Shown here: positions 1,823-36,155 of the stretch, in pieces
Numbering within the stretch: position 1 is the first letter of the stretch
Layout: each line of letters starts with the position of its first letter
NCBI GenBank assembly: GCA_043809145.1
Contig: JAZDED010000033.1
Location: forward strand, 18,196 to 82,195
Reading direction: 5' to 3'
DNA length: 64,000 nucleotides
Source of the DNA: Candidatus Omnitrophota bacterium
Lineage (GTDB): Bacteria; Omnitrophota; Gorgyraeia; Gygaellales; Profunditerraquicolaceae
Notes under the pieces: model-generated
Told to the model about the DNA's origin: nothing
Databases searched by the model: none
The model's input: only the letters and a program-made list of their open reading frames with translations
Position numbers and translations under genes: made by a program

Positions 1823-2050
1823 ATGCCTAAGAATAAAGATATTTTAACAGCCAAGCAAGTCGCTGAATACCTGCATCTGCACCCATTGACTGTGCACCGT
1901 TATGCCCGTGAAGGTAAGATTCCAGCTTTTAAAATCGGGACAGATTGGAGGTTTTACAGTAAATACCTGGAAAGGTGGATAAAACAGAAACACGGCGCCT
2001 CTTCCGTCGACAAAAAAAGCAAAAATAACGAATTGTTTGATAAAAAATAA
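1823..2050 (+). CDS. excisionase-family (MerR-like) helix-turn-helix DNA-binding protein
   Basis: LTAKQVAEYLHLHPLTVHRYAREGKIPAFKIGTDWRF matches the excisionase-type HTH pattern. AGGAG lies upstream of the ATG. Confidence 0.6.
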   Translation: MPKNKDILTAKQVAEYLHLHPLTVHRYAREGKIPAFKIGTDWRFYSKYLERWIKQKHGASSVDKKSKNNELFDKK

Positions 2051-2054
2051 CCTT

Positions 2055-2666
2055 ATGTGGTATTGGATATTCAGCATCTTATTTTCCGTAATCGGTAAAA
2101 CCTTTTTTCAATTAAAAGTAGAGGGATTGAAAAATATTCCCTCGCGAACCAATTTTATTATAGTGGCTAACCACTTTAGTTTTCTCGACCCACTGGTAAT
2201 CATGGCAGCGGTGCGCAAGAAGATTTACTGCATTGCCCTAAGGGACATTTATAAAATCAAGTGGATGGGGTGGTTTCTAAAAATGGTAGAGACCTTTCCC
2301 TGCGGAACAGCATCATCGATTGCGGTAAAACTCTTATCAGAAAATAAAAATGTGGGCCTTTTTCCCGAAGGCGGAGTCAGCCGCGACGGAAAACTTAAAG
2401 AATTCAGGCGGGGCGCGGCACTCTTAGCTTATAAGACCGGCCGCCCAATAGTCCCTTGCGCCATATTGGGCGCATTTGAATCTCTTCCTTTTGGCAACAG
2501 CTTCCCTAAGATGCGCCCGATTAAATTAAAGATTGGCCGGCCTATCTATCTGACTAAAGAGTTTGATGAACGTATAGACGAGCTGTATTTGCAAGACGGG
2601 ATTTTTCGTATCCGAAATTCTATAAAGGAAATGTTAAAATGCCCGATAACGAATTTATCGAAATAG
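2055..2666 (+). CDS. 1-acyl-sn-glycerol-3-phosphate (PlsC/AGPAT-family) acyltransferase
   Basis: HX4D block VANHFSFLDP and FPEGGVSRDG block, with an N-terminal TM segment. ATG at 2055 is preferred over TTG at 2037. Confidence 0.8.
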   Translation: MWYWIFSILFSVIGKTFFQLKVEGLKNIPSRTNFIIVANHFSFLDPLVIMAAVRKKIYCIALRDIYKIKWMGWFLKMVETFPCGTASSIAVKLLSENKNVGLFPEGGVSRDGKLKEFRRGAALLAYKTGRPIVPCAILGAFESLPFGNSFPKMRPIKLKIGRPIYLTKEFDERIDELYLQDGIFRIRNSIKEMLKCPITNLSK

Positions 2667-4234
2667 AAATATCAAAAATTATCCAGGCTGAAAAATGGAA
2701 AATTATCCGCCTCCTGACAAAAGTCTGGGAATTTCCTTCGTATGTACCCTGCGTAAAAGAATCATCGGTAATCCTGAAAAAACGCCATGTAATGCAAACC
2801 CGATGGTCAATCAAGCTTGAGAATATACCGATTAGATGGATTGAAGAAGACACTCTTTCGCTTAAGGAGAATGCAATTTATTTCAAGGCTATCGAAGGTG
2901 ACCTTGAAGAATTCCGAGGTATCTGGACATTCGCAAACCTTCCCGAAGGAACACTTGTAAAATTACATATCAGCCTTAAAGTCGGCATCCCGGCAATCAA
3001 TGAATTTGCCAATGAGTATGTACGCAAACTAATAACGAAAAATTTTGAGGCTATTCTTGATGCTATTGAACGCAGGCTTATATCAACGCGTTACAGCAGT
3101 TACCGCCAGGGCAATATAGAAAAAATATCCGGATTCGGCATTATTATTCATTTTTATAATTACTGCCACCTGGAGAAGGGCCTGCTTAAACTTAATCCCG
3201 AACTTAAGTTACCTTCCCGGGCATTCCTACAACAGCTCTATCAAATCGCTCCTTCATTTAAGCTCTGCGATATTGATAGTTTTACCTCCAAGAATAAAAG
3301 TTCGGTAAAGGGCTCATTTGTAATAGCTACTTTTATCCCGGATATGCTGGAACAGGACCAATGGGCAGCTTATTCAAAAGTCATCAAAGCCTGCAAGATA
3401 GCAGAAAAAAAAGGAGTAGGTATTGTAACCCTGGCTAATTTTTCTTCTATGGTGCCGCAGAAAATCGACCATAAAATAAGCGATGATATCTATGTCCCGG
3501 TAACTACCGGGAATTCTTTTACCGTAGCCACAGTCATAGAAAGCATTCTTAAAGCCAATATGGCCCTACAGCTGAACCTTAGCCAATCGACCTTGACAAT
3601 TGTCGGAGGAACAGGAGATATCGGCAGCGCCTGCGCCAGAATACTGGCGGATAGAGTGAAAGAATTGATCATAACCGGAAGGAACAAGGAAAAGTTAAAG
3701 AACCTACATGATGAGTTAGCCCGTAAATATAAAACAAAGATTATTGCAACTACCGATAATCTTGCGGCAGTCAAAGCCGCTGACATAGTCATCGCCTGCG
3801 CAAACTCCAGCGCGTCATTTCTGAATATTGACTGGTTCAAACCCGCGAGCATAATCTGCGATGTAGGATATCCTAAAAACGTCTGCTATTATTCCAGCCG
3901 GGAGGATATACTGATATTTTCCGGAGGCTTGGTAAAATCCCCTACTCCTATTGATTTTCCTATTGACCTGGGGCTGCCGGCTCAGGATATAATCTATTCT
4001 TCTTATGCCGAAGGAATAATCCTGGCCCTGGAGAAAAGGTATGAAAATTATTCTCCCCAGGACAAAAATATTACTCCGCAAAAAGTTGAAGAAATAAGGC
4101 AACTCGGGGCTAAACATGGTTTTGAGCCGGCGGATTTTTACTGGTCAGGAAAACCCATAACCGAAGACCATATCCAGAAGGTGCGCAAAATTAACCAACT
4201 ACTCGGAAAAAATGCTGAATATAAAATAATATAA
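2639..4234 (+). CDS. SRPBCC (cyclase/dehydrase, START-like) domain fused to an acyl-ACP-reductase (cyanobacterial AAR)-like domain
   Basis: The N-terminal ~145 aa have an SRPBCC pattern (W..F.SYVP..., GDLEEFRGIWTF). The rest aligns by eye along its length with Synechococcus AAR: FGIIIHF, TFIPDML, TTGNSFT, TIVGGTGDIGSACARIL, GRNKEKLKNLHDEL, DVGYPKN, AKHGFEP. The AAR catalytic Cys position reads Ser (YSSYAEG). Confidence 0.65.
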   Translation: MPDNEFIEIEISKIIQAEKWKIIRLLTKVWEFPSYVPCVKESSVILKKRHVMQTRWSIKLENIPIRWIEEDTLSLKENAIYFKAIEGDLEEFRGIWTFANLPEGTLVKLHISLKVGIPAINEFANEYVRKLITKNFEAILDAIERRLISTRYSSYRQGNIEKISGFGIIIHFYNYCHLEKGLLKLNPELKLPSRAFLQQLYQIAPSFKLCDIDSFTSKNKSSVKGSFVIATFIPDMLEQDQWAAYSKVIKACKIAEKKGVGIVTLANFSSMVPQKIDHKISDDIYVPVTTGNSFTVATVIESILKANMALQLNLSQSTLTIVGGTGDIGSACARILADRVKELIITGRNKEKLKNLHDELARKYKTKIIATTDNLAAVKAADIVIACANSSASFLNIDWFKPASIICDVGYPKNVCYYSSREDILIFSGGLVKSPTPIDFPIDLGLPAQDIIYSSYAEGIILALEKRYENYSPQDKNITPQKVEEIRQLGAKHGFEPADFYWSGKPITEDHIQKVRKINQLLGKNAEYKII

Positions 4235-4235
4235 T

Positions 4236-5276
4236 ATGGCTAAATTCGCATTTATCGTAAATCCGGTTGAGCTCAACAATATCTATCAGCAATTTCCTTT
4301 CTCCCGGATACTTCCGAAAATTATCCTAAAAAAAGCGCTGCGCCTGCTTCCGCCGTTAAAAATAGCGCAAACAAGAAAATTTCTATCCCCTGCAGGAGAA
4401 GAAATACAAGGTTATTTTATAGCGCTACCTTTACTCTCAGAGCAGATTAGAGAGCTAGATGAAACCGACGCCGTTAAAAGACTGACCCTCTGTATAGACC
4501 TATGCCGCAGGCTTCAGGTGGATATTATTGGAGTAGGCGCAGCAGCCGCAACCATAGGCAATGGCCTGGAGGAGATTTCCAAGCAATGCGAGATACCATT
4601 GACTAATGGCTCCAGCCTCGGCTCAGCCGCGATACTGGAAGTAATAGAAAAAGCGGCAATCCTAAAACATATTGACCTTAAAAATACGAAACTTGCGATT
4701 ATCGGCGCCACTAATGCAGTCGGACAAAACTGCTCGCTTGAGTTTTCCAGACAGGTGGCTTCGCTGAGTTTAATCGCTAAAAATGAACAGCGTTTAATTG
4801 AGTTAAACAAATATCTGCTCGCGCAGCATATAACAGCGCAGATAGAGATAAACCCGGCTAACGCGCCTGAAGCAGTCAAATGCGCTGACATCGTAATATT
4901 CACCGCTTCCGCAGGTGAAATTAACTTTAAGACAACGGCTGACTCATTTAAAAAAGGGGCAATAGTCTGTGATATGCCTGCTTCGCGAAATATAACCCGA
5001 AAGATAGCTTTAACAAGAAAAGACATTCTGGTCATTGATACCGACGTAATTAAACCGCCGCAAACAATTGATTTAGGCTTCAGCCTGCCACAAATAGGAA
5101 AGGGGAACCTGTTTGCCTGTATAGCCGAAACAATACTGTTAACACTTGAGAAGAAATTTGACCGGAATTTCTCTGTTGGCTTTAAACCTGACCTGAATAA
5201 AACAAAAGAGATACTAACGATTGCTAAAAAACATGCCTATAAAATCGCGTTTACGAGCTTCAACCAGGAAATTTAA
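4236..5276 (+). CDS. acyl-ACP-reductase (AAR)-like protein, paralogue of the previous gene
   Basis: FAFIVNP, LAIIGATNAVGQNCS, AKNEQRLIELNKYL and LFACIAETILLTLEK (Cys retained at the AAR FACFAE position). The glycine motif is degenerate (GATNAVG). Confidence 0.65.
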   Translation: MAKFAFIVNPVELNNIYQQFPFSRILPKIILKKALRLLPPLKIAQTRKFLSPAGEEIQGYFIALPLLSEQIRELDETDAVKRLTLCIDLCRRLQVDIIGVGAAAATIGNGLEEISKQCEIPLTNGSSLGSAAILEVIEKAAILKHIDLKNTKLAIIGATNAVGQNCSLEFSRQVASLSLIAKNEQRLIELNKYLLAQHITAQIEINPANAPEAVKCADIVIFTASAGEINFKTTADSFKKGAIVCDMPASRNITRKIALTRKDILVIDTDVIKPPQTIDLGFSLPQIGKGNLFACIAETILLTLEKKFDRNFSVGFKPDLNKTKEILTIAKKHAYKIAFTSFNQEI

Positions 5277-5943
5277 ATCCAGGAACCTGCAGCAACCAAT
5301 AAAATCATTACTGTTATTACTGATAATAATATGGTTTACCGCAGCCGTATCAATATCATTTTCCGATCCAAAGAATACCTTGCTTACCCTTGTTTTGATT
5401 TTAATCGCCATAGAGCGCTTTATAGAAACCTTCTTCACCAGCAAACAAAATATTTTGAAAAAAAATACCAGGTTCGATTGGATTTTTATCTCATTGACCC
5501 TTGGCTATATAATGCTTATGTATGGATCACTTCTAGAGGCGTTTTTTAGCCCACATAAACTTTCTCCGCTTATTTCAATCCAAGGTATTATAGTCTACTG
5601 CCTGGGCTTAGGCCTGCGATGGTGGTCGATTAAATCCCTGGGTTTTGGCTGGAACCTCTTTATATCAAAAAAGTCCATAAAAAAAAGTGTACATTTAAAA
5701 CTGGTTAAAAACGGTCCGTATGCGCTGGTGCGCCACCCCATATATATAGGGACCATTTTTGAAATACTAAGCATCCCGATAATTGCCAATGCCTTATTCT
5801 CCCTGATCTTTGCCATTGCCACAATAATCCCGTTATTGATTATTCGAGCGTTATTGGAAGAAGAGATCTTAGTCCGTTATTTCAAAAACCGTTACGCTGA
5901 ATACAAAAAAAGAACAGGTTTTCTTATGCCTAAGCTTTTTTAA
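5233..5943 (+). CDS. membrane methyltransferase of the ICMT/PEMT family
   Basis: Multi-TM protein with LVKNGPYALVRHPIYIGTIFE and the C-terminal LLEEEILVRYFKNRYAEYKKRT signature. Confidence 0.65.
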   Translation: MPIKSRLRASTRKFKSRNLQQPIKSLLLLLIIIWFTAAVSISFSDPKNTLLTLVLILIAIERFIETFFTSKQNILKKNTRFDWIFISLTLGYIMLMYGSLLEAFFSPHKLSPLISIQGIIVYCLGLGLRWWSIKSLGFGWNLFISKKSIKKSVHLKLVKNGPYALVRHPIYIGTIFEILSIPIIANALFSLIFAIATIIPLLIIRALLEEEILVRYFKNRYAEYKKRTGFLMPKLF

Positions 5944-5954
5944 AAAATATACCT

Positions 5955-8126
5955 ATGAATATTATGATTTTTTACTCCTTAAGCGGGTTATTCAGCGCGG
6001 TCATCGCTTCCGTGTTCGGCATATTCGTATTCATCAAAAAACCGCAAGGAGCAGTTAACCGCACCTACGCGGCCTTAAGCTTCTGGATTGCCTTATGGGG
6101 ATACGCCTATTTTTATTTTCCCATATCGCAAAATGATAAGGATACCGTACTTTTATCCTTCCAAATCCTACAAATAGGCGCTATTTTTATCGGCCCGGCA
6201 TTCCTGCATTTTGTCCTATCCCTTTTAAATATGCATAAAGAAAAGAGAGGGTGGGTTAACCTAGCTTATATACTGGGCATTATCTTCGCAATTTCAGACT
6301 TCACTCCGTTTTTCATAAAAAGAATGGTTCCAAAATTTGAATTTAATTACTGGGCTGAACCGGGTTTCATGTATCACTTATATCTTGTATTCTGGTCCTG
6401 GTGCATTATCTATCCCTGGAGTTTAATACTGCGCAGATACAGCCAACTATCAGAATTTAAACAGAACCAGTTAAAATATGTATTTATCGCCTCAATAATA
6501 GGCTTTCTGGGCGGAGCTACCAATTATCCTTTCTGGTACAATATAGCTATACCTCCAATAGGCACATTCCTGGTAGGAGTGCATGTGCTTATCCTAGCCT
6601 ATGCCATCATTAAATACCGCCTGATGGATATAAAAGTCACGATTACCAGAGCAGGTGTTTTCCTGGCAGTATATACCCTGGTGCTGGGCGCGCCTTTTAT
6701 CCTCTCTACATCCGGAAAATTGCTCCTGATTGAAATCCTGGGAAGAAATTGGTGGTTGGGCCCATTGGTTCTTATGGCGCTCCTGGGCACAGGAGGCCCT
6801 TTTATATACATCTTCCTCAAGAACAGCGCTGAATCATTGATATTACGCGAACAAAAAAAATGCCAGAAGGTTCTTAAAAACGCAGCTGTCGACCTGACCC
6901 GTATACGCAATATACAAAAACTGCTGGATTTTGTCTGTCAAACTATAACCGAAGCCGTGAATATAAAGAACGCGGCAATTTATTGTTTTGACGCCAAACA
7001 AAACGCCTTCATTCTGCAATCAGGAATGGACTTAAGTAAAAAACAGCCCAAATCCATACCTTGCCATAATAAACTCATTGAACTGATGCAGAAGAATAGA
7101 GACTCGCTTATCCTGGAGGAAATTATATACAACTCTCAAGAAGATAATACCTCCTGCCTAAAAAGCCTGGAAATAGAGATGCTTCAATTAGGCGCAGCCA
7201 TGGCAGTACCCTGTTTTCTAGAAGACAAACTCCTGGATGTCATCATCCTGGGCGAAAAGAAATCTGCAAAGATGTATGGGCAGGAAGATGTGGAAAATTT
7301 CAATATTCTGGCTCCGGAAGTGGCGCTAGCAACGGAAAATGCCCAGCTCTACGAAAAAATAGAAGAGGAGGTCCGCGAAAAAACCAGCGAACTAGGTGAA
7401 ACCCAGAAGCAGCTGGTACAGGCAGAAAAATTAGCCACCATCGGAACTTTGGCCGGAGGAGTAGCGCATGAAATAAATAATCCTTTAACCGCTATACTAA
7501 CCAATGTCCAGATGCTATTAGATAGCGACGAGCCGGATAAGGAATGTTTAGAAATGATTGAAGACGCCACCAAACGCTGCAAAACAATAGTCCAGAAATT
7601 AATGGCCTACGCCAAGAAACCACATGCGAATAACGAAGAGCTCGTCATGCTGGATTTACGCCAGACTACCGAGAAAACAGTCTCTTTTCTCAAATTTCAG
7701 ATGGATCAGGAAAGTATCACGCTAAATATAAAAAAAACCAAAAACGAATGCCTGATTATGGGCAATCCCAATGAATTAGAACAAGTGATAACCAATATCC
7801 TGATTAACGCAAAAGATGCTATTAAACAAATCCATAAAAGTGGTATAATTAATGTATCAGTTTACGAGCACCAGTCTTGGTCTAAAATAGAAATACAAGA
7901 CGACGGAGTGGGAATAGCAAAAGAACTGCTCCCTAGAATATTCGACCCTTTTTTTACCACTAAAGATGTGGGAAAAGGCCTGGGGTTGGGATTATCTATC
8001 TGCCAATCGATTATAGAAAAACATAGCGGCAGGATATGCGTAGATTCCGAGATTAATAAAGGCGCGAGGTTCACTATATGGCTCCCCCTGACTACAAAGG
8101 TAGACAGGAGCAGGAAAACAGTCTAA
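5955..8126 (+). CDS. sensor histidine kinase: N-terminal 7TM sensor region, GAF-like domain, HisKA, HATPase (HK1)
   Basis: About 290 aa of TM helices. H-box GGVAHEINNPL, N-box ITNILINAKDA, DDGVGI and GKGLGLGLS. Confidence 0.85.
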   Translation: MNIMIFYSLSGLFSAVIASVFGIFVFIKKPQGAVNRTYAALSFWIALWGYAYFYFPISQNDKDTVLLSFQILQIGAIFIGPAFLHFVLSLLNMHKEKRGWVNLAYILGIIFAISDFTPFFIKRMVPKFEFNYWAEPGFMYHLYLVFWSWCIIYPWSLILRRYSQLSEFKQNQLKYVFIASIIGFLGGATNYPFWYNIAIPPIGTFLVGVHVLILAYAIIKYRLMDIKVTITRAGVFLAVYTLVLGAPFILSTSGKLLLIEILGRNWWLGPLVLMALLGTGGPFIYIFLKNSAESLILREQKKCQKVLKNAAVDLTRIRNIQKLLDFVCQTITEAVNIKNAAIYCFDAKQNAFILQSGMDLSKKQPKSIPCHNKLIELMQKNRDSLILEEIIYNSQEDNTSCLKSLEIEMLQLGAAMAVPCFLEDKLLDVIILGEKKSAKMYGQEDVENFNILAPEVALATENAQLYEKIEEEVREKTSELGETQKQLVQAEKLATIGTLAGGVAHEINNPLTAILTNVQMLLDSDEPDKECLEMIEDATKRCKTIVQKLMAYAKKPHANNEELVMLDLRQTTEKTVSFLKFQMDQESITLNIKKTKNECLIMGNPNELEQVITNILINAKDAIKQIHKSGIINVSVYEHQSWSKIEIQDDGVGIAKELLPRIFDPFFTTKDVGKGLGLGLSICQSIIEKHSGRICVDSEINKGARFTIWLPLTTKVDRSRKTV

Positions 8127-8141: not shown

Positions 8142-8534
8142 ATGTCTAAGAAAATCCTCATAATCGACGATGAAACAATGATTACCAAAAGCCTGAAAAA
8201 ACTGCTCACTAAAGAAGGATACCTTCCGACAATCGTCTCAAGCGGAAACGAAGCGCTTGACCAGCTCAAAACCGATAATTTCGATCTTTTGGTATTGGAT
8301 ATGCGCATGCCCCAGATGGACGGTATTGAAACCATCCGGGCTATCCGCCAATACCTGGCAATAGAGCAAAAAGACCCCATGCCGGAAATAGTCATTACCG
8401 GATACGCAGACGAAAATAAATATAAGTGCGCCGTAGACCTTAAGGTGGCAGCCTACATTTACAAACCTTTTGACACTAAAGATTTTATGGCTACGGTAAA
8501 AAAAGCCCTGGGAGAAGATAATGCTGCAAAATAA
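8142..8534 (+). CDS. single-domain response regulator (REC)
   Basis: KILIIDDE, LLVLDMRMPQMDG and YIYKPF. GGAGG lies upstream. Confidence 0.85.
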   Translation: MSKKILIIDDETMITKSLKKLLTKEGYLPTIVSSGNEALDQLKTDNFDLLVLDMRMPQMDGIETIRAIRQYLAIEQKDPMPEIVITGYADENKYKCAVDLKVAAYIYKPFDTKDFMATVKKALGEDNAAK

Positions 8535-9264
8535 AACAGCGATTATTAGCGGAGCTTCGCGCGGAATAGGAAGAGCGATTGCTTTGGAGTTAGCTGCTAG
8601 CGGATGTAATATATCTTTCAGCTACCTAAAAAATGAAGCGGAAGCCAGAAAACTGGAAGAAGAAATCATAAAGATAAAAGTTAAGGCTATGGCTTTTCAG
8701 GCAGATATTAAAGATTATGAAGCGGTGTGCGCCTGGGTAACTAAAACCAAAGAAGTATTCGGTTCTCTGGATATAGCCATAAACAATGCCGGAGTAATTA
8801 AAGACAAAGCCCTAGTTTTTATGGAAAAAATAGACTGGCAGGAGGTCATGCAAACTAACCTAGACGGAGTATATAATCTAAGCCGGGCAGTGATCACCGG
8901 ATTCTTAAAACAAAAAAGCGGCAATATCATTAATATCAGCTCCGTAAGCGGGATTATCGGGCTGCCACGTCAAACTAATTATTCTGCCTCCAAGGCAGGA
9001 GTAATCGGTTTTACCAAAGCCCTAGCCAAAGAAGTTGCCGGATACAACATCCGAGTTAATGCAATAGCCGCGGGTTTTATCGAAACAGACATGACTAAAG
9101 AACTCAAGGATTCGCTGCGGGAAAAGATGCTTAAAAATATCCCCCTGGGCCGCTTTGGAAAAACTGAAGAAGTAGCTCTTGCAGTTAAATTCCTGGCCAG
9201 TGACGTATCGGAATATATTACCGGAGAAACCCTGGTCATTGACGGCGGATTATCAATGTTATGA
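8521..9264 (+). CDS. fabG: 3-oxoacyl-ACP reductase (SDR)
   Basis: SGASRGIGRAIA, NNAG, YSASKAG and GETLVIDGG. Confidence 0.85.
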   Translation: MLQNKTAIISGASRGIGRAIALELAASGCNISFSYLKNEAEARKLEEEIIKIKVKAMAFQADIKDYEAVCAWVTKTKEVFGSLDIAINNAGVIKDKALVFMEKIDWQEVMQTNLDGVYNLSRAVITGFLKQKSGNIINISSVSGIIGLPRQTNYSASKAGVIGFTKALAKEVAGYNIRVNAIAAGFIETDMTKELKDSLREKMLKNIPLGRFGKTEEVALAVKFLASDVSEYITGETLVIDGGLSML

Positions 9265-9301
9265 GACGAAGTAACCGAATGCTTGGTTATTAAATAAATA
9301 T

Positions 9302-10543
9302 ATGGGTAATAATAAAGTAGTCATAACCGGAATCGGAGTAATTGCTCCCAACGGCATCGGCAAGGATGAATTCTGGAAAGCATTAAAGAATGGTATATCC
9401 GGAATCCGGCCGATTACTATCTTTGACTCTACTCTATTTAAGACACACCAGGCAGGAGAGGTGATTAATTTTGATCCGGTGACCTACTTGGGAGAAAAAG
9501 GCTTGCGCAATTTAGACCGCAGCACCAAACTTCTGTGTTCTGGCGCAAAGTTAGCCCTGGATGATGCCCGCCTGGATACAACAGGTGATAATGCCGATCA
9601 TATCGGAATAATAACCTCAACCACGCTTTCAGTTATCTGGAATATCGCGGAATTTAATAAAGAGGCAGAGGACTCCGGGCCGCAGTTAGTCAATCCGGCT
9701 ATGTTTCCCGGAACCACTATTAACGCGCCCTCAAGCCAAGTTTCAATCAGGTTTAATATTAAAGGTTTTAATACCACTATCTCCACAGGTTATACTGCCA
9801 GCCTTGACGGCCTTAAATATGCGGTTGATTTCTTAAGGGCAGGACGGGCAAAAGCGATATTACTTGCCGGAGTAGAAGCGCTATTTTTCCAAACTTTTGT
9901 CGGGTTTAATAAATTGGAATTCTTAGCCGGGATAAAAGGAGAGGAACTTTCATGCCCATTTGATTTACGCAGAAATGGAATCATAGTCGGTGAGGCAAGC
10001 GCGGTGCTGGTTTTAGAAAATGAAGCTTACGCGCACCAAAGAAAAGCAAGAATTTACGCCGAAGTAAAAGCCGTGGAAAACTTCTTTGATCCTTTCCGCA
10101 GCGGAAGATACAACCCCAAATCCGAGGGCCTCAAACGTTCTATGACCAAAACCCTCAAGGATAGCCGCTTAAAAGAATCCGAGATAAGCTATATTTGCGC
10201 AGCAGCAAACTCCGTGCCTCTTCAGGATGCCCTGGAAACAGCAGCCATTAAAGAGGTATTCGGTGCAACAGCCGCTAAAGTACCGGTGAGTTCAATTAAA
10301 TCCATGGTCGGAGAAACCGTAAGCGCCGCCGGCGCATTGCAGATTGCCGCGTCTATCGGAGCTATGGAGCAAGATTTTATTCCCCCGACAATAAATTACC
10401 AAAAACCTGATCCGGCCTGCGACCTGGATTATGTTCCAAATAAATGCAGGTTTCAAAAAATAAATAATGTTTTGATTAATAATTTTGGCCCGGGTGGAAA
10501 CAATGCTTCCTGCATAATAGGAAAATATGAATGCTTGCAATAG
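9302..10543 (+). CDS. beta-ketoacyl synthase-like protein lacking catalytic Cys/His/His (chain-length-factor-like partner)
   Basis: KS fold motifs (VVITGIGVIAPNG, GFNKLEFLA). The active-site block reads ISTGYTAS instead of TACAAG, HGTGT is replaced by AAANSV, and the Lys/His block is KSMVGETVSAAG. Confidence 0.75.
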   Translation: MGNNKVVITGIGVIAPNGIGKDEFWKALKNGISGIRPITIFDSTLFKTHQAGEVINFDPVTYLGEKGLRNLDRSTKLLCSGAKLALDDARLDTTGDNADHIGIITSTTLSVIWNIAEFNKEAEDSGPQLVNPAMFPGTTINAPSSQVSIRFNIKGFNTTISTGYTASLDGLKYAVDFLRAGRAKAILLAGVEALFFQTFVGFNKLEFLAGIKGEELSCPFDLRRNGIIVGEASAVLVLENEAYAHQRKARIYAEVKAVENFFDPFRSGRYNPKSEGLKRSMTKTLKDSRLKESEISYICAAANSVPLQDALETAAIKEVFGATAAKVPVSSIKSMVGETVSAAGALQIAASIGAMEQDFIPPTINYQKPDPACDLDYVPNKCRFQKINNVLINNFGPGGNNASCIIGKYECLQ

Positions 10544-11744
10544 AGTAGTTGTCACCGGCCTGGGAGTTATTTCGGCCATCGGCACCGGTAGAAAAAAATT
10601 CTGGGAAGCCGCCCTAAGCGGGGCCTCAGGAATAAATGAAGTCTCCTCGTTCGATACGAGCAGTTTTAAATGCCACCGAGCAGGAGAAGTTAAAAATTTT
10701 AATCCTGAAGAATTCATCCCTAAAAGAAAGGTCAAATTTTTAGGCCGCTCTTCGCAATTGGCCATTGCTGCTGCGTCTTTAGCCATTCAGGACGCTGGTT
10801 TTGAATTAAAGACTCTGCCCAAAAATAAATTAGGCGTACTCATAGGCACTACCATGGGAGAAAAACCCATTGAAGAGCTGGCGCAAATCTGGGCCAAGGG
10901 AGGACTAAAAGATATTGACCGCCGCAGAATCCTGCAATCTTCAGCAAATAATATATCAGCCAATGTAGCCATGTACGCCAAAGCTCGTGGCCAAAATTAT
11001 TTATTTCCCACAGCCTGCGCAGCTGGAAATTATGCCATTGGTTATGGATTTGATTTAATCCGCAGCCGCGATATAGATTATGCCCTAGCCGGAGGAGCAG
11101 AAGCTTTTTCATACACTGCCTTTGTAGGCTTCCAGCGTCTTTATGCCATGGCTACTGATAAATGCCAACCCTTTGATAAGAACCGCAAAGGCATGATGTT
11201 AGGAGAAGGGTCAGCAATGCTGCTTTTAGAAAGATTAGACCTGGCTCTGGAAAGAAAGAGAGAGATTTACGCGGAAATCATAGGCTACGGATTATCCTGC
11301 GACGCACATCATGCTACAGCTCCGGAAGTCAGAGGCGTATCCCAAGTAATGGAAAAAGCGCTAAAGGAATGCAGTATCTCTTATAAAGATGTGGATTATA
11401 TCTGCGCTCACGGTACAGGAACGCCGATGAACGACAGGATAGAAGCCCAAGCAATCAAAAATGTGTTCAAAGAACGCGCTAAAGAAATCCCGGTCAATGC
11501 CCTTAAATCCATGCTCGGGCACAGTATGGGCGCTGCCTCTGCTATAGAAGCAGTGTCCTGCTGCCTCTCCGCAAAATTTGACACAATACCCCCAACTATA
11601 AATTACGAAACCCCTGACCCGCAATGCGATATTGACTGCGTGCCAAACACTAAGCGGGAAAAAATAATAAATATTGCCATGAATAATGCCTTTGCTTTCG
11701 GCGGAAATAATTCCAGCCTGGTAATAAAAAAATTTATAAAGTAA
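10527..11744 (+). CDS. beta-ketoacyl-ACP synthase (FabF/KS-alpha-like), catalytic triad intact
   Basis: PTACAAGNYAIG (Cys), CDAHHATAP (His), AHGTGTPMND (His) and KSMLGHSMGAAS. Overlaps the preceding KS-like gene by 17 nt. Confidence 0.85.
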   Translation: MNACNRVVVTGLGVISAIGTGRKKFWEAALSGASGINEVSSFDTSSFKCHRAGEVKNFNPEEFIPKRKVKFLGRSSQLAIAAASLAIQDAGFELKTLPKNKLGVLIGTTMGEKPIEELAQIWAKGGLKDIDRRRILQSSANNISANVAMYAKARGQNYLFPTACAAGNYAIGYGFDLIRSRDIDYALAGGAEAFSYTAFVGFQRLYAMATDKCQPFDKNRKGMMLGEGSAMLLLERLDLALERKREIYAEIIGYGLSCDAHHATAPEVRGVSQVMEKALKECSISYKDVDYICAHGTGTPMNDRIEAQAIKNVFKERAKEIPVNALKSMLGHSMGAASAIEAVSCCLSAKFDTIPPTINYETPDPQCDIDCVPNTKREKIINIAMNNAFAFGGNNSSLVIKKFIK

Positions 11745-11759
11745 TTATGCATAAATTAC

Positions 11760-11788
11760 TTGTAAAATCCTGGAAAAAAAGCTATACT
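11760..11788 (+). promoter_or_regulatory. candidate sigma-70 promoter upstream of the ACP gene
   Basis: TTGTAA (11760-11765), a 17-nt spacer, then TATACT (11783-11788). Followed by GGGAGGGTG and the ATG at 11823. Confidence 0.35.
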
Positions 11789-11822
11789 AAATATCGCGCG
11801 CATATAACAGGGAGGGTGAATA

Positions 11823-12074
11823 ATGCCCAAGACGGATTTTGAGCAGATAAAAAAAGAAGTCAAAAGAATGGTGGCTGAAATAACCGAGCTAACAGAAACT
11901 AAGCTCAAAGACGAAGCAAAGTTTGTGGATGACTTAGGGGTTGACAGCATGATGGCCCTGGAAATCGTAGCCAGCATTGAAAAGAAATACAAAGTTACAA
12001 TTCCTGAAACCGAAATTCCTAAGATGCGCTCGCTTAACGATATTTACGCGTTGCTTGAAAAGGAAATGAAATAG
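11823..12074 (+). CDS. acyl carrier protein
   Basis: 83 aa with DDLGVDSMMALEIV (phosphopantetheine Ser). Confidence 0.85.
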   Translation: MPKTDFEQIKKEVKRMVAEITELTETKLKDEAKFVDDLGVDSMMALEIVASIEKKYKVTIPETEIPKMRSLNDIYALLEKEMK

Positions 12075-12078
12075 GCCA

Positions 12079-12522
12079 ATGAACGCTATCTGGGATATAA
12101 CCAAAATCCAGGAGATCTTGCCGCACCGCTACCCATTCCTCTTCATTGATAGCGTAGTTGAAATTAACGAAGAGGAGAAACGGGTTGTCTGCCTAAAAAA
12201 CGTTACCATAAATGATTATTTCTTTAAGGGCCATTTTCCTGGTAATCCGGTGATGCCGGGAGTAATTATCATTGAAGGCATGGCCCAATCCTGCATCATA
12301 CTTTACGCCGCCATTAAGCCCGAGATAGCCGCTAAACATCCTATCTATTACCTGGGCAACGCCGATATTAAATTCCTTAAACCCGTATTCCCGGGCAGCC
12401 AGCTTATGCTGGAAGCAACCCACCGCAAGATCATGGAGAAGGTCGGTATTGCCAGCGTCACAGCCAGGGTCAACAATGAAATCGTAGCCAAAGGCGAAAT
12501 CATCTTTGGCATCAAACTATAG
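12079..12522 (+). CDS. fabZ: 3-hydroxyacyl-ACP dehydratase
   Basis: LPHRYPFLFIDSV and GHFPGNPVMPGVIIIEGMAQ. Confidence 0.85.
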   Translation: MNAIWDITKIQEILPHRYPFLFIDSVVEINEEEKRVVCLKNVTINDYFFKGHFPGNPVMPGVIIIEGMAQSCIILYAAIKPEIAAKHPIYYLGNADIKFLKPVFPGSQLMLEATHRKIMEKVGIASVTARVNNEIVAKGEIIFGIKL

Positions 12523-12649: not shown

Positions 12650-13738
12650 ATGACAAATCACAAACCACATCAGCCGACCATATTTTTAACCGGGGCAACA
12701 GGATTCCTGGGATCCTATCTATTAAAACTTTTCCTTGAAAATAATCATAAAGTATATGCCTTGTCCAGAGGAAAAAAAAGCCAGGATACCAGAGGGAGGA
12801 TTATTTCGGTATTAGAATTCTGGGGAGGCCCATGTTTAAAAAAGATCATCAACCTGATTGTCCTAAACGGTGACGTAACCCTAAAAAACCTGGGTTTAAG
12901 CAGGCCTGATAGAAGCCTCTTACAAGCCAAGACTGAACAAATCTTTCATTCAGCGGCAATTACCGACCTAAAAACAGAATCAAAACAAATCAACAAGGTT
13001 AATATTGAAGGTACGAGAAATATCTTAAACCTGGGTTTAGAATGGCATAAAAAAGGATGCCTTAAAAAAATTAACCATATCAGCACTGCTTATATCTACG
13101 GAGATTATCAGAAAACTTTTAAAGAGAGCGACTTTTACAAAAGGCAGAAATTCTATACCAATTACGAACAGAGTAAGTTTGAAGCTGAAAAAATTGTACA
13201 GCAATTCAGAAGGAAGGGGCTATGGATAGATATCTATCGCCCATCCATGGTCTTGGGCGAATCCAAATCCGGAAAAACCTTTCAACTAAAACATATCTAC
13301 CAATTCCTTAATCTTTGTAAAGTTGAAATATTTCAATCCCTGCCTATCAAAAACGGCTATGTCAGCCTGGTGCCTATTGATATAACCTGCAAAGCGATCT
13401 ATCTCTTAAATACCATGAATAAAGTTAGGAATATGGTCTTTCACCCTTTCCCTAGAAAACTGACATCTATTGAAGAAATCCTCAATATTGGAGCAAAGCT
13501 TATAGGCTTTGACCCCCCTCAAGCAGTAGAATTAAAAGATTTCCCCACCCTAAACCTGACCCCAGTCCAAAGGATGTTATTAAATGATACAGTGCTTTCG
13601 GTTAATTTTAAGACCAAAATTAACTCGGATATAACTAATAATTTATTAGAAAAATACCGTTTTAAGATACCGAATATGGACAATAAAATCTTATCACTAA
13701 TCCTCAGATACTCCATCAATAAGAAGAGAGGAAAGTGA
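12650..13738 (+). CDS. thioester-reductase-type extended SDR (fatty acyl reductase / NAD_binding_4-like)
   Basis: IFLTGATGFLGSYLL, ALSRGKK, FHSAA, NIEGTRNIL, HISTAYIYG, YEQSK (YxxxK) and YRPSMVLGESKSGK. Confidence 0.65.
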   Translation: MTNHKPHQPTIFLTGATGFLGSYLLKLFLENNHKVYALSRGKKSQDTRGRIISVLEFWGGPCLKKIINLIVLNGDVTLKNLGLSRPDRSLLQAKTEQIFHSAAITDLKTESKQINKVNIEGTRNILNLGLEWHKKGCLKKINHISTAYIYGDYQKTFKESDFYKRQKFYTNYEQSKFEAEKIVQQFRRKGLWIDIYRPSMVLGESKSGKTFQLKHIYQFLNLCKVEIFQSLPIKNGYVSLVPIDITCKAIYLLNTMNKVRNMVFHPFPRKLTSIEEILNIGAKLIGFDPPQAVELKDFPTLNLTPVQRMLLNDTVLSVNFKTKINSDITNNLLEKYRFKIPNMDNKILSLILRYSINKKRGK

Positions 13739-15009
13739 TGCAAGAAAGATATGATTATATTATTGTAGGAGCAGGGCTCTGCGGCCTGGTCTTAGCCAAG
13801 GAACTTAGCCAGAAAAATAAAAGAGTCCTTATTCTGGAAAGGGGAGGATATATACGCAACCTTGGAAGTATCATGTACGTGGCTCCGTTTTACGATAAAA
13901 TTGGATTAGCCAAAAGCCGCCAAGGAGTAATTAATCTGCGTGTATTAGGAGTTGGCGGAACAAGTGTGGTCAGCTGCGGCAATGCTGTAGAATTTCCCGA
14001 AGAAGAAACAAAGAAAATAGGAATAGATTTTAGCAGTGAAATTGAGTCATCAAAAAAAGAATGCAATGTAAGTACAGACCATGTAATTGGAAGAGCCTCT
14101 AAAAGAATCATGGAAGAGGCTAATCGATTAGGGTATGGAATGCGCTCCATGCCAAAACTTCATTTAAAAAAATGTGTTTCTTGCGGTAACTGCATCTGGG
14201 GATGCGCTCATCAAAATAAATGGAGTTCTATAGATTTCCTGAAAGATATCAACACTAAAAATATTCAGATTATAACCAGCTTCAATGTACGCAAAGTAAC
14301 CTCCTCCAATAGCAAGGCCCTGGGAATCGAAGGAACTCGTAACCTTAACCCAAAGAAATATCTTGCCGAAAAAATAATCCTGGCCGCTGGAGGCTTAGGA
14401 ACACCGGTAATCCTGCAGAATTCAGGTATTGAAGAAGCAGGAAAAAATCTTTTTCTCGATTTATTCAATATTATATATGGCCTTAATGAACAATACAACC
14501 AGGCTAAAGAATTAACTATGTCAGTAGTTTGCGATAAATTCCATAAAAATGAGGGCTTCATACTTTCACCGCTAGTTGATAGCTCAATTGGGCTTCTTGC
14601 CTGTATAGACTTAAAATACATTGGAAATGTATTCAGGCTAAATAATCTTATGGGCTTAATGAATAAGATTAAAGATGAAAACATGGGTCGGGTTTATCCT
14701 AACGGCGCTTTTGACAAAACACCCACTGCCAATGATCGAAAAAAACTAAATAAAGGCGCAGAAGTTGCCAAAGAAATACTTATCCAATGCGGAGTTAGGC
14801 CTAAAAGTATTTTTGTAACCCGTCCCAGAGGGGCGCATCCCGGCGGCACAGCAGCAATCGGGAAAGTCGTGGACAAGAATTTAGAAACGCGGATTAAAAA
14901 TCTTTTTGTTTGCGACGCAAGCATACTACCAGAAGCGCCAGGCCTACCGCCCATATTGACCCTTGTAGCTATATCAAAATGGTTTGTTAAAAATATTTTG
15001 GAGAAATAA
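13735..15009 (+). CDS. GMC-family FAD oxidoreductase with an internal Cx2Cx2Cx3C motif
   Basis: YDYIIVGAGLCGLVLA...ILERG (FAD ADP-binding) and C-terminal GAHPGGTAAIGKVVD...LFVCDASILP. Internal motif CVSCGNCIWGC. Confidence 0.7.
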   Translation: MMQERYDYIIVGAGLCGLVLAKELSQKNKRVLILERGGYIRNLGSIMYVAPFYDKIGLAKSRQGVINLRVLGVGGTSVVSCGNAVEFPEEETKKIGIDFSSEIESSKKECNVSTDHVIGRASKRIMEEANRLGYGMRSMPKLHLKKCVSCGNCIWGCAHQNKWSSIDFLKDINTKNIQIITSFNVRKVTSSNSKALGIEGTRNLNPKKYLAEKIILAAGGLGTPVILQNSGIEEAGKNLFLDLFNIIYGLNEQYNQAKELTMSVVCDKFHKNEGFILSPLVDSSIGLLACIDLKYIGNVFRLNNLMGLMNKIKDENMGRVYPNGAFDKTPTANDRKKLNKGAEVAKEILIQCGVRPKSIFVTRPRGAHPGGTAAIGKVVDKNLETRIKNLFVCDASILPEAPGLPPILTLVAISKWFVKNILEK

Positions 15010-15594
15010 ATGGATATATTAAAACTTATTAAAAAAAGATGCACAACAAGAATATATTTAAATAAAAAGATACCTCACAAAATAATAAATAAAATAATTG
15101 AAGCAGGGGTATGGGGACCATCCATACACGGTTTCCAACCTTGGAAATTTATAATAGTACAAAATCGGAAAATAATTAACAGATTTTCTAAAACCATTCT
15201 TAGTAAAACTCAAATAACAGAAACTTATGCAAATACTCTAATGACCATTACAGCTAGGACAATTAAAAACGCTGGCACAATTATAGCTATATATAACTCT
15301 AGAAATTTTACAAATTTTGCACATCAATTTAAAAAAAGAAACTACACTAAAATATCTGAATTATCAGAAGTTGAAGCCATATCTGCAGCGATCCAAAATA
15401 TGTTACTTACTGCAGAGACATTAAGAGTTGGTAGCTGTTGGACAATAGTACCATTATTTTACGAACAAGAAATTAATAGAATACTAGATACAAAAGATAG
15501 ATTATTAGCCATTGTTACATTGGGTTTTCCTGCAGAAAAAGGCAGAAGAACAAAGCGTAAACCTAATAATATAGTTACTAAATATATAGCTTAG
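15010..15594 (+). CDS. nitroreductase-family flavoprotein
   Basis: CTTRIY, IIEAGVWGPSIHGFQPWKFIIV and AIQNMLLTAETLRVGSCW. Confidence 0.7.
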   Translation: MDILKLIKKRCTTRIYLNKKIPHKIINKIIEAGVWGPSIHGFQPWKFIIVQNRKIINRFSKTILSKTQITETYANTLMTITARTIKNAGTIIAIYNSRNFTNFAHQFKKRNYTKISELSEVEAISAAIQNMLLTAETLRVGSCWTIVPLFYEQEINRILDTKDRLLAIVTLGFPAEKGRRTKRKPNNIVTKYIA

Positions 15595-15595
15595 A

Positions 15596-17032
15596 ATGCG
15601 TAATAGATATGATGCTATTATAATCGGAGCGGGAATTGGAGGCTTAGTAGCTGGATGCTACTTATCTAAACTCGGATCCAGGGTATTAATCATTGAACAA
15701 CAAAATAAACCAGGAGGATGCTGTACCTCATTTGAAAAAAACGGATATAAATTTGATGTAGCTGTTCACTATTTAGGAGGAATCAATAAAGGAATACTAG
15801 GAACTATATTTGATGAGTTGGGGTTAAGGGGTGATTTAAAATTCAATCAATTTGATCCTGTCGATAAAATCATAACACCAAAAATTATAACTTATATAAG
15901 AAACAAATCGACTTCTACAATTAAAGAGTTAAAGCACAACTTTTCCAAGGAAAGGAACAATATTGATAAATTCTTTTCTTTTGTATTACATGAAAATATT
16001 TATAATATGTATAAGAAGGTAGGTGCTTTAACAACAAAACAATTGCTTGATACTTTTTTTGAAGATAGATGTTTGAAAAGCACTTTAAATGTTACCTTGA
16101 GAAACATTGGATTATGTGCAAATGAATCATCTTCACTTGCATTCATTACTCTACTAAAAGATTACATATTAGATCCTGGATACTACCCTATTGGCGGCAT
16201 GCAAGAATTACCAAATAAATTGGCAGATAAATGCATAAACTTTGGAGGAAAGATTATCTTAAATCATTCCGTAAATAAAATTGTTCTTTCCAATAAAATG
16301 GTACAAGGAGTTAGGCTTGATGATGGGCAAGAATTCAAAACCAATACAGTTATCTCAAATATTAATGCAACAGATACATTCTTTAATCTATTAAAAATTA
16401 AAACGAGAGAACAAAACATAATAAAGAAACTTGTGCCCTCCCCATCTCTTTTTCTCGTATATGTCGGTCTCAATAATAAATTTAAGATTTCTTCAAAGGC
16501 GTCCTATAATATCTGGCCTTTTTTAAGCAATAATTTAAACAGATCTCCTGTTGTTTCAAAAAAAGAGATTGAAAGGGGAAAAGCATCAATAACAACAATA
16601 ACCTTTCCCTCCCAGCACGATAATTCAGTATCTAAAAAAACAGCAACTATTTTTTCTACTGTAGAGATTAGCAATAAAATATTCTGGGACAAATATAAAA
16701 ATATATATGCAAATAGTCTAATAAATAAAACAGAGAAAATAATTCCTTTTTTTAGTAATTTTGTTGATTTAAAGATAGTGGCAACACCATATACCTTTCA
16801 AAAATACACCTCAAATAAAAATGGCTCCGCATACGGCTGGGCTTCAAATGTTAAACAAATAAGCACAGCATTAATATCTCAGAAAACATCGATACCTGGA
16901 TTATTTCTAGCTGGACATTGGTCTATGGTCGGAACAGGACAAGGCGGGGTATCAAAATCAGCTTTTTCAGGAAGAAGAGTTGCTAGTTTAATATTAAACG
17001 AGAACAAATCTTTAATTAATGAATTTAAGTAA
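15596..17032 (+). CDS. CrtI/phytoene-desaturase-family NAD(P)/FAD oxidoreductase
   Basis: YDAIIIGAGIGGLVAGCYLSKLGSRVLIIEQQNKPGGCC, IGGMQELP and C-terminal GLFLAGHWSMVGTGQGGV. Confidence 0.75.
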   Translation: MRNRYDAIIIGAGIGGLVAGCYLSKLGSRVLIIEQQNKPGGCCTSFEKNGYKFDVAVHYLGGINKGILGTIFDELGLRGDLKFNQFDPVDKIITPKIITYIRNKSTSTIKELKHNFSKERNNIDKFFSFVLHENIYNMYKKVGALTTKQLLDTFFEDRCLKSTLNVTLRNIGLCANESSSLAFITLLKDYILDPGYYPIGGMQELPNKLADKCINFGGKIILNHSVNKIVLSNKMVQGVRLDDGQEFKTNTVISNINATDTFFNLLKIKTREQNIIKKLVPSPSLFLVYVGLNNKFKISSKASYNIWPFLSNNLNRSPVVSKKEIERGKASITTITFPSQHDNSVSKKTATIFSTVEISNKIFWDKYKNIYANSLINKTEKIIPFFSNFVDLKIVATPYTFQKYTSNKNGSAYGWASNVKQISTALISQKTSIPGLFLAGHWSMVGTGQGGVSKSAFSGRRVASLILNENKSLINEFK

Positions 17033-27072: not shown

Positions 27073-27597
27073 ATGGGTAAAATTCAATCCCTGCAACCGG
27101 TAAAGCTAATCAGCGGTTTTATTTTTAAAGATGAACTTATCTATAAAAAGACAAAGGGTATCCTGGAGAGGCAATACGGGAGTATTGATTTTGAAAGCCA
27201 GGCAATTGATTTTATTCACACTGATTTTTATAAAAGCGAGATCGGAACCAATTTAAAAAGAAAATTCATAAGCTTCAAAAAACTAATTCCTCCTAATCAC
27301 CTTTCTTCAGTAAAAACCTTCGCGAATAAAATTGAAAAAAAGTTCTCAAGCAATAATAAACGCGCGGTAAATATCGATCCGGGTTACTTGGATTTGAGCA
27401 AAATGGTACTGGCTACCACCAAGGATTTTACACACCGCATCTATCTGGATAAAGGAATATTCGCCGAAGTAACTCTTTTTTTCCAGGGTAAATCTTATAA
27501 ATGCTGGCCTTGGACTTACCCGGATTACCAGACGCCGGAACATATTGCCATATTCAATATTATCCGGGAACTCTTCCGCCAGCAGCTGACACGATAA
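27073..27597 (+). CDS. DUF4416-like protein
   Basis: N-terminal PVKLISGFIF and VNIDPGYLDLSKMVLATTKDFTHRIYL. Family assignment is from memory only. Confidence 0.45.
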   Translation: MGKIQSLQPVKLISGFIFKDELIYKKTKGILERQYGSIDFESQAIDFIHTDFYKSEIGTNLKRKFISFKKLIPPNHLSSVKTFANKIEKKFSSNNKRAVNIDPGYLDLSKMVLATTKDFTHRIYLDKGIFAEVTLFFQGKSYKCWPWTYPDYQTPEHIAIFNIIRELFRQQLTR

Positions 27598-27599
27598 TA

Positions 27600-35849: not shown

Positions 35850-36155
35850 CTACTCACTCTTGTACTCAAAGTTACCGCCATGGATACGAATTAGCTTACC
35901 GTTTACCAAGGCATCAGCAACGGTCTTATGACCATGTTTAAGGATCCTGCTTAAGGTCTGCTGGGATATTCCCATGGATTTGGCTGCCTCTTTTTGGCTC
36001 AATCCCTTAAAATCAACTAACCTCAATGCCTCTACCATGTCTAGGGTCAAATACGCCTCATCCGGCCTGCCAGGGCGTCCCCTAGGGCTAAATTGGCTAA
36101 TTTTACCTATATCACGGATTATCCTGGATTTCTTTGGCCTTCCCCGCGGAAACAT
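35850..36155 (-). CDS. DUF134 (UPF0251) family DNA-binding protein
   Basis: PRGRPKK, F.PRG, LTLDMVEALRLVDFKGLSQKEAAKSMGISQQTLSRIL. Confidence 0.7.
   Translation of the reverse strand: MFPRGRPKKSRIIRDIGKISQFSPRGRPGRPDEAYLTLDMVEALRLVDFKGLSQKEAAKSMGISQQTLSRILKHGHKTVADALVNGKLIRIHGGNFEYKSE

Follow-up and report, generated by a model that had tools for sequence, protein, structure and literature searches.

The window analysed here is a stretch of 64,000 nucleotides from an uncultured Candidatus Omnitrophota bacterium (GenBank assembly GCA_043809145.1, contig JAZDED010000033.1, positions 18,196 to 82,195), and this study concerns two adjacent genes near its beginning, called par1 and par2 below, that both encode relatives of the cyanobacterial acyl-acyl carrier protein reductase (AAR). 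The junction between them reads TAA-t-ATG (positions 4232-4238), with a stop-start gap of 1 nt, and the start of par1 is overlapped by 28 nt by a gene encoding a PlsC-type acyltransferase (Table 1). The par1 protein is 100% identical to one protein of a Candidatus Omnitrophota metagenome-assembled genome (MAG) at NCBI, and par2 is likewise identical to an NCBI MAG entry. No third AAR-like open reading frame (ORF) is present within the 64-kb window.

Table 1. Genes and residues of the par1-par2 region of the window, and LuxD-like fusion genes occupying the par2 position in related loci (L numbers; coordinates are those of each locus).
Feature	Position	Strand	Basis or remark
PlsC/Aas-type acyltransferase	2037..2666	+	PF01553, E=3e-26; acyl-ACP--phospholipid O-acyltransferase domain ranked first in NCBIfam
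par1, SRPBCC and AAR-like fusion, 531 aa	2639..4234	+	ORF call; Pfam, NCBIfam and PDB matches; model
par1 dinucleotide loop GGTGDIG, aa 323-329, intact	3605..3625	+	aligned by HMMER with AAR 162-GATGDIG-168
par1 Ser455 (codon TCT) at the AAR Cys294 position	4001..4003	+	alignment
par1 P473-Q474-D475 in place of the family F-G-R (AAR W312-G313-R314, NADPH/CoA phosphate pocket)	4055..4063	+	alignment
par2, 346 aa, a single AAR-like domain that keeps the Cys; GATNAIG lineage	4236..5276	+	profile and PDB matches; model
par2 loop GATNAVG, aa 157-163, N160 at AAR G165	4704..4724	+	aligned by HMMER with GATGDIG
par2 Cys295, equivalent to AAR Cys294	5118..5120	+	HMMER alignment, par2 F293-A294-C295 with AAR F292-A293-C294
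ICMT/PEMT-like membrane methyltransferase	5221..5943	+	PF04140 and PF04191; start codon uncertain, ORF overlaps the end of par2
Seven-transmembrane (7TM)-type histidine kinase	5955..8126	+	conserved downstream neighbour of par1
Response regulator	8142..8534	+	follows the 7TM-type histidine kinase
FabG	8521..9264	+	ORF translation and homologues in related loci
Chain-length factor (CLF)-like ketosynthase (KS) without Cys-His-His triad	9302..10543	+	Tyr, Phe and Ala at the triad positions
Active KS with Cys-His-His triad	10527..11744	+	triad residues
Acyl carrier protein (ACP)	11823..12074	+	DSM motif, in the translation only
FabA/Z-like dehydratase	12079..12522	+	part of the type II fatty acid synthase/polyketide synthase (FAS/PKS)-like set 8521..12522
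NAD_binding_4 protein (fatty-acyl reductase or terminal reductase type)	12650..13738	+	homologue directly after par1 in 10 other loci
LuxD-like (PF02273)/S-adenosylmethionine (SAM) methyltransferase fusion, ~555 aa	L002: 1655-3325		downstream of Cys-less par1
Same	L007: 9569-11269		downstream of Cys-less par1
Same	L089: 7550-9229		downstream of Cys-less par1
Same	L090: 7594-9261		downstream of Cys-less par1

The N-terminal domain of par1 (aa ~8-147 on the combined evidence) matches PF03364 (Polyketide_cyc) at aa 25-137 (E=6e-12, 46.3 bits for a cut-off of 23.4) and the START protein of PDB entry 2d4r (E=1e-11), and is a member of the SRPBCC/START superfamily, which has the helix-grip fold. The AAR-like domain that follows it (aa ~195-505) is matched by TIGR04058 at aa 203-497 (E=4e-44) and by AAR itself (PDB 6jzq, AAR 41-337 aligned with par1 209-498, phmmer E=1e-31), the top PDB match being 6jzz, the C294S mutant of AAR. 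The matches of par2 to AAR cover aa 46-333 (phmmer E=2e-6); its match to the N-terminal domain of PigE is at E=5e-12, and both the PigE N-terminal model and PDB 4PPM outscore AAR. AlphaFold predicted both structures with high predicted local distance difference test (pLDDT) values, 86.8 for par1 (TMt 0.83 to AAR and 0.92 to 2d4r) and 88.8 for par2 (template modelling score, TM, 0.79-0.81 to AAR), and for both models Foldseek ranked AAR structures first (TM ~0.8) and the terminal amidation domain (TAD) second. The two proteins therefore belong to the AAR-like fold superfamily (COG5322; AAR, PigE-N, TamH-TR and TAD), and neither qualifies as an equivalog of TIGR04058, for which they score 151.4 (par1) and 74.4 bits (par2) against a cut-off of 449.7.

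An earlier examination of these letters made without database searches (the sequence-only reading) had described both genes as full-length AAR homologues 1 nt apart, the first fused to an SRPBCC domain, with an intact glycine loop and a Ser for the catalytic Cys in par1 and the opposite combination in par2. Profile, PDB and model matches bear out this description, and proper alignment with AAR places no Cys in par1 and no intact loop in par2 at the functional positions. The acyl-accepting Cys294 of AAR corresponds to Ser455 in par1, where AAR F292-A293-C294-F295 aligns with Y453-S454-S455-Y456, and to Cys295 in par2. The AAR loop 162-GATGDIG-168 reads GGTGDIG in par1 and GATNAVG, with the middle Gly gone, in par2. 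Both proteins keep the position of AAR E297 (the AE of FACFAE). Overlooked so far was that par1 has lost the equivalent of R314 as well, its sequence being SPQDKN where the family has SFGRGN; at AAR R189, R193 and R314, par1 has R, K and D and par2 has K, R and F, so that the full set of the phosphate pocket is present in neither. Taken together, these residue states would argue against thioester reduction by par1, and speak neither way for par2. Identity between par1 and par2 is only 26% across 325 residues, indicating old paralogues and not a fresh tandem duplicate; a recent duplication was rejected on this ground. Simple gene decay was rejected too: neither ORF is disrupted, conservation is strong in both families, and the structures are predicted with confidence.

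A word-index search returned at least 605 matches to par1, and all counts out of 120 given below refer to the 120 homologues listed among them. Nearly all of these are SRPBCC-AAR fusions over their full length, which is 507-544 aa, and every one with a named source comes from Omnitrophota; par1 is one member of a large branch of hundreds of SRPBCC-fused AAR-like proteins across this uncultured phylum. Our literature search found no published work on this family, on its genomic context or on the GATNAIG lineage to which par2 belongs. In 107 of the 120 homologues the Cys is kept (YGCF[AS]E) together with GGTGDIG, R/K189 and SFGRGN, and GGTGDIG is present in 109. The genomic context was compared in 80 loci from GTDB representative genomes plus the window, and targeted look-ups extended the comparison to about 170 related loci. 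The par1 loci are ~60% identical to each other at the amino-acid level. They show a conserved order of genes for a PlsC-type acyltransferase, par1, a 7TM histidine kinase and a response regulator, often followed by FabG, KS/CLF, ACP and FabZ; among the 80 loci, PlsC lies upstream of par1 in 50, and the kinase and the response regulator are found in 58 and 47, respectively. The HisKA_7TM kinase type also occurs in the looked-up loci L088-L091. This conserved context of PlsC, 7TM sensor kinase and KS/CLF-ACP points to a dedicated, so far uncharacterised lipid pathway. As the next gene downstream of par1, 34 loci have the kinase, 10 have a NAD_binding_4 reductase, 7 have a GMC oxidoreductase and 4 have a B12-binding radical SAM protein; a second AAR-like copy is the exception, most loci being single-copy. 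With complete residues in 107 of 120 homologues and mostly single-copy loci, the ancestral and usual state is one protein carrying every catalytic residue of AAR, and the reciprocal degeneration of a tandem pair that the sequence-only reading had proposed does not describe these old paralogues, most par1 homologues keeping their Cys as a single copy.

The AAR-like proteins around this branch are diverse. An exhaustive superfamily search gave 1855 cluster representatives at E<=1e-3; among the top 150 of them, both motifs are found in 110, neither motif in 28, the Cys without the glycine loop in 6 and the loop without the Cys in another 6. A third AAR-like paralogue type of ~330 aa is encoded just upstream of PlsC in L004, L005, L012, L016, L023, L026, L029, L032, L043, L067, L072 and L089-L091; its catalytic Cys is gone, as is the GxxGxxG loop in nearly all copies (the copy in L091 has GATGAVG), and it does not occur in the window. 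The B12-binding radical SAM proteins that directly follow par1 carry DUF4070 (L006, 9634-11103; L026, L029 and L048). A small HTH_17 gene precedes the cluster in L088-L091. Other architectures, represented by P0215, P0225, P0254 and P0270, include a PlsC-acyltransferase-AAR-like protein (P0215), PilZ-SRPBCC-AAR-like and HTH_17-PilZ-SRPBCC-AAR-like proteins, the PilZ-bearing ones hinting at control by cyclic di-GMP in other bacteria. The loci L105-L172 contain single genes of a ~361-aa AAR-like family with intact GA[ST]GSIG and [YF]ACMAE motifs, found in many metagenomes including those of the human gut, and we found no characterised member of this family. Some relatives are ~700 aa long, and their ~300-aa N-terminal regions were checked for a Rosetta-stone fusion with a further, degenerate AAR-like domain; no such domain was detectable there.

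The loop of par2 had been taken for a degenerate one. Of 52 database relatives that are 40-48% identical to par2, not one deviates from GATNA[IV]G, from the Cys or from R193, and only K and R occur at position 189. Of 36 positions conserved to 80% or more in the 110 intact representatives, this GATN-type family retains 32, deviating at A88G, T134A, G165N and G266A, and doubly dead relatives lose many more. A loop that is invariant in 52 of 52 proteins, within a family keeping 32 of 36 conserved positions, is a fixed variant under selection and not a product of degeneration. Most GATN genes stand alone among unrelated housekeeping genes with no par1 nearby, as is the case in 6 of 6 looked-up contigs that have long flanks and at 10-11 of 12 metagenome loci (these stand-alone loci include L081-L087 and L093-L102, and one contig is labelled Smithella by NCBI). 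In a neighbour-joining (NJ) tree, the Omnitrophota-linked members form deep branches and the stand-alone genes a tight crown that includes the par2 of L005, which suggests a later lateral spread between groups. An ICMT/PEMT gene directly follows the GATN-type par2 in all five Omnitrophota loci seen to have it (the window, L005, L046, L091 and L092); methyltransferase genes are not adjacent to the stand-alone relatives, and ICMT-like genes also occur further downstream in the par2-less loci L026, L044 and L061.

The Cys of par1 is absent in 13 of the 120 homologues, the window included, and nearly all of these also replace F-G-R by P-E-Q/K. In an NJ tree of par1 homologues, most Cys-less par1 proteins fall into one clade that contains the window protein, with separate losses in L022, L032 and P0112. 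Two codon routes led to Ser: the main clade went from TGT to TCT, and L022 from TGC to AGC. Later change at this site gave Ala in L001 (GCT) and Pro in L092 (CCT); L032 has Ala, and L088, which lies within the clade, has TGT. The AAR-like domain averages 68% identity inside the Cys-less clade, where only 13 of 125 near-invariant columns of the domain are altered, among them C294, W312/G313/R314 and residues beside R189; the pattern is that of a targeted loss or remodelling of the active site, and the protein as a whole has not decayed.

At every Cys-less par1 locus examined, an extra gene lies between par1 and the kinase. It is a GATN-type par2 followed by an ICMT-like methyltransferase in the window, L005 and L092, an AAR-like copy with both an intact GxxGxxG loop and the Cys in L001 and L022, a LuxD-like/methyltransferase fusion in four further loci (Table 1), and a 497-aa ORF in L032. 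The LuxD-like fusions, three of which have GxSxG at about aa 110 (that of L090 having only GESDG at aa 69), were met only beside Cys-less par1, in the par2 position. When the window is counted together with the 80 GTDB loci, 6 of 7 Cys-less par1 genes have a Cys-bearing AAR-like gene or a LuxD-like/methyltransferase fusion downstream, versus 2 of 59 Cys-type par1 genes with at least 1 kb of downstream sequence (Fisher p=2e-6, in a test that ignores phylogeny). The look-ups outside this unbiased set added three Cys-less par1 genes with a partner (L089, L090 and L092) and two Cys-type ones with a partner (L088 and L091). Since a partner thus also occurs beside Cys-type par1 (L031, L042, L046, L088 and L091), it looks necessary and not sufficient for the loss, which fits redundancy followed by loss. 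The par1 genes beside a GATN-type par2 differ in how much they have lost: that of L046 is intact, that of L091 keeps the Cys and has lost R314, in those of the window and L005 a Ser goes together with the loss of R314, and that of L092 has YGPYAE, GATSDIG and no R189. This gradient would correspond to stages of catalytic decay of par1 once another acyl-accepting enzyme is present. The GATN-type par2 P0168 adjoins a fully degenerate par1; the Ser-type par1 P0033, which is not its neighbour, was left out of the counts.

These observations suggest that par1 lost its catalytic residues after a self-sufficient par2 had arrived, rather than that one enzyme was divided between two proteins. We put at about 0.5 the probability that par2 is an autonomous acyl-accepting enzyme, beside which par1 persists as a pseudo-reductase partner binding lipid and nucleotide. 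By homology, a typical par1 with Cys, glycine loop, R189 and R314 would take an acyl group from the ACP of the cluster onto its Cys and reduce it with NADPH, and the fused SRPBCC pocket may then take up the hydrophobic product, in the role that aldehyde-deformylating oxygenase (ADO) has beside AAR. Such a par1 would work together with the translationally coupled PlsC-type acyltransferase and the dedicated KS/CLF-ACP set; the PlsC-AAR-like fusion P0215 supports a place for this acyltransferase in the same pathway. In the order of events that we infer, a two-gene insert (par2 and the ICMT-like methyltransferase) would have come between par1 and the histidine kinase, and par2, from a separate and older AAR-like lineage, would have taken over the acyl-S-enzyme step. 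As its lineage is found without par1, par2 is taken to be an autonomous catalyst forming such an intermediate. With the acyl step covered, the Cys294 position of par1 could have changed to Ser and its R314 pocket could have gone, while the fold, the glycine loop and the SRPBCC domain stayed; par1 would then probably persist as a non-reducing partner that binds lipid and probably nucleotide or coenzyme A (CoA), possibly in physical contact with par2. The C294S mutant of AAR is unable to form the acyl-enzyme (PMC7089970), which supports the view that Cys-less par1 is disabled as a thioester reductase. The pseudo-enzyme that the sequence-only reading had considered finds support in so far as par1 looks like one.

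Several points weigh against this interpretation. The 13 Cys-less par1 proteins have GGTGDIG in 11 cases, both Gly positions in all 13, and R/K189; a kept loop and R/K189 would be unexpected in a pure scaffold and would fit a role in supplying NADPH. The Asn at the middle Gly of the par2 loop is expected to hinder NAD(P)H binding, so that par2 may not reduce by itself, and a par1-like partner of the stand-alone GATN genes could be encoded at some distance in the same genomes. The only ORF downstream of the Cys-less par1 in L032 is unassignable. The NJ trees carry no bootstrap values, and the loci behind the association test include a main Cys-less clade that is one lineage among some 3-5 independent losses overall. 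Finally, the functions given to both families are predictions from homology.

An obligate heteromer with divided labour had been one of the suggestions of the sequence-only reading; par2 would give the acyl-accepting Cys and par1 the NADPH binding and the SRPBCC product pocket, and we consider it improbable. The complementary-looking residue states in the window, the 1-nt gap between the genes, the glycine loop and R189 kept in the Cys-less clade, and the correlation between Cys loss and a downstream partner are all in its favour. So are the dimerisation of the AAR relative TAD through its N-terminal domain, the KS/CLF pair in the same cluster, and the abundance of doubly dead AAR-like paralogues (28 of the top 150 representatives, at least 12 Omnitrophota loci), since mixed assemblies may be a habit of the superfamily. 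Complementarity is, however, not conserved across paired loci, given the varied states of par1 and the three kinds of partner: a GATN-type par2 may stand beside a fully intact par1 (L046) or one without Cys, glycine loop and R189 (L092), and Cys-less par1 may stand beside a copy with both motifs or a LuxD-like protein. Strict co-occurrence fails as well, because par2-type genes are mostly stand-alone and most par1 loci single-copy, and par1 also lacks R314 of the phosphate pocket. In AAR, one and the same chain holds the acyl group on Cys294 and the NADPH, whose C4 atom is 3.14 A away from the acyl carbon, and one cleft serves both NADPH and CoA in a ping-pong mechanism (PMC7089970); this single-chain site leaves no obvious way of dividing it between subunits, and an active site split between par1 and par2 is unlikely. 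We likewise give little credence to a wider version, a real complex of par1, as a Cys-less pseudo-reductase binding NADPH and lipid, and par2, with its Cys and altered dinucleotide loop, that would act with the ICMT-like methyltransferase and the PlsC acyltransferase, under control of the 7TM kinase, to make a membrane lipid typical of Omnitrophota, possibly methylated or reduced; if a complex did exist, the related loci would show how an autonomous enzyme turned, step by step, into a heteromeric one.

Both proteins could instead be active with altered chemistry, par2 binding NAD(P)H despite Asn160 and working as a normal thioester reductase, and par1 using NADPH to reduce a non-covalent substrate (an aldehyde or keto compound) or using Ser455 as an O-acyl nucleophile. 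The conservation in par2 of K189, R193, the T223 loop, P248 and 32 of the 36 conserved positions is consistent with this, as are the 68% identity of the Cys-less clade with changes confined to the active site, which resembles remodelling, and the two codon routes to Ser. We nevertheless regard it as rather unlikely: the tolerance of Ala (L001, L032) and Pro (L092) at the site indicates that a nucleophilic Ser is not essential there, no acylation occurs with AAR C294S (PMC7089970), the glycine loop of par1 can be lost too (L092), and this fold has no known catalytic acid or base with which to reduce a carbonyl directly. As for its acyl-Cys, par2 may either reduce it or only transfer or hydrolyse it. 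As a possibility that is compatible with par1 being a pseudo-reductase, and that we hold with some reserve, par2 would be no reductase but a Cys-dependent acyl transferase or thioesterase forming with the ICMT-like methyltransferase a module equivalent to the LuxD-like/methyltransferase fusion, for example to release and O-methylate an acyl product. The constant ICMT neighbour in the five Omnitrophota loci and the LuxD-like protein fused to a SAM methyltransferase at the same position favour such a release-and-methylate module; the joint fixation of G165N, T134A and G266A and the non-reductive use of an AAR-like acyl-Cys intermediate proposed in the TAD preprint point the same way. Against it, ICMT-like genes are also found in par2-less loci, the stand-alone relatives have no adjacent methyltransferase, and the conservation of K189 and R193 fits an ADP-phosphate ligand that could be NADPH, the last two points leaving room for reduction by par2.

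Known systems share some features with the pair and differ in others. The cyanobacterial AAR (Synechococcus elongatus orf1594; PDB 6JZQ/6JZU/6JZY/6JZZ) has the same three-domain fold and full-length homology to both proteins; par1 shares its GxxGxxG loop and par2 its Cys, whereas par1 lacks C294 and R314 and adds the N-terminal SRPBCC domain, and par2 lacks G165 and R314. The context here, with PlsC, a histidine kinase and KS/CLF, is not that of alkane synthesis: in agreement with the sequence-only reading, tblastn with an approximate ADO query sequence gave no match better than E=0.6 in the window, and no ferritin-like protein is among the annotated neighbours. The statement that AAR homologues are known from alkane synthesis with ADO is incomplete: AAR-like thioester-reductase domains act in PigE and TamH, and the TAD, a related NAD-binding domain with a Cys, occurs in non-ribosomal peptide synthetase systems. 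The AAR-like domains of PigE (prodigiosin) and TamH (tambjamine) convert a carrier-bound thioester to an aldehyde (PMC8341465, PMC9594044); unlike in those systems, no aminotransferase is fused or adjacent here, and scores are far under the PigE cut-off of 850 bits. The TAD of CarI (PDB 9E4S/9E4U) has an AAR-related fold with an invariant Cys beside the bound NAD, and is a homodimer according to its preprint; it differs in being part of non-ribosomal peptide synthetase/PKS megasynthases, in its canonical GxGxxG and in its specificity for NAD, and its sequence is only distantly similar (E ~4e-5 to par1). Type II PKS and aryl-polyene systems likewise have a pair of adjacent paralogues, KS and CLF, of which one lacks the catalytic residues, but the two members of such a heterodimer show strict co-occurrence and a shared tunnel, whereas par1 and par2 each also occur alone. 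LuxCDE is a fatty-acid reductase system, and the myxobacterial ElbD combines reductase and AGPAT domains for ether lipids; the aldehyde dehydrogenase-like fold of LuxC and the short-chain dehydrogenase/reductase domain of ElbD both differ from the AAR-like fold. The likeness to LuxCDE lies in the LuxD-type acyltransferase gene that stands in place of par2 in sister loci, and that to ElbD in the coupling of a PlsC-type acyltransferase to an acyl reductase-like domain (fused in P0215); no LuxE or AMP-ligase gene was seen adjoining par1.

AAR-type enzymes matter for making fatty aldehydes, alcohols and alkanes, and knowledge of them rests almost wholly on the cyanobacterial enzyme and two pigment pathways. 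The related loci described here form a natural series in which the catalytic Cys and residues of the cofactor pocket are lost almost only where a second acyl-accepting gene is present, so that pseudo-enzyme formation becomes testable, and the invariant GATNAIG loop is a variant whose cofactor behaviour is of interest. The surprise lies in this comparative pattern and in the phylum-wide lipid cluster; no new mechanism is revealed.

Downstream of the kinase and response regulator genes, the window continues with a set of biosynthetic genes (Table 1). The KS and the CLF-like KS are 35% identical and their genes overlap by 17 nt; with ACP, FabG and FabZ added, this pair suggests a type II FAS/PKS-like set dedicated to the pathway more than a housekeeping FAS. 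At 17019-17498 and 17435-19237, two overlapping ORFs each carry part of HisKA_7TM, apparently a second 7TM kinase split by a frameshift or assembly error. The region 14001-18000 has a low G+C content (0.32-0.34 versus ~0.41 elsewhere), encodes GMC oxidoreductase, nitroreductase and amine-oxidase-like proteins and may be lateral. A radical SAM ORF lies at 27501-28559. At about position 36000 the coding strand and the GC skew change together, with genes on the + strand before this point and, after it, genes on the - strand with a strongly negative skew.

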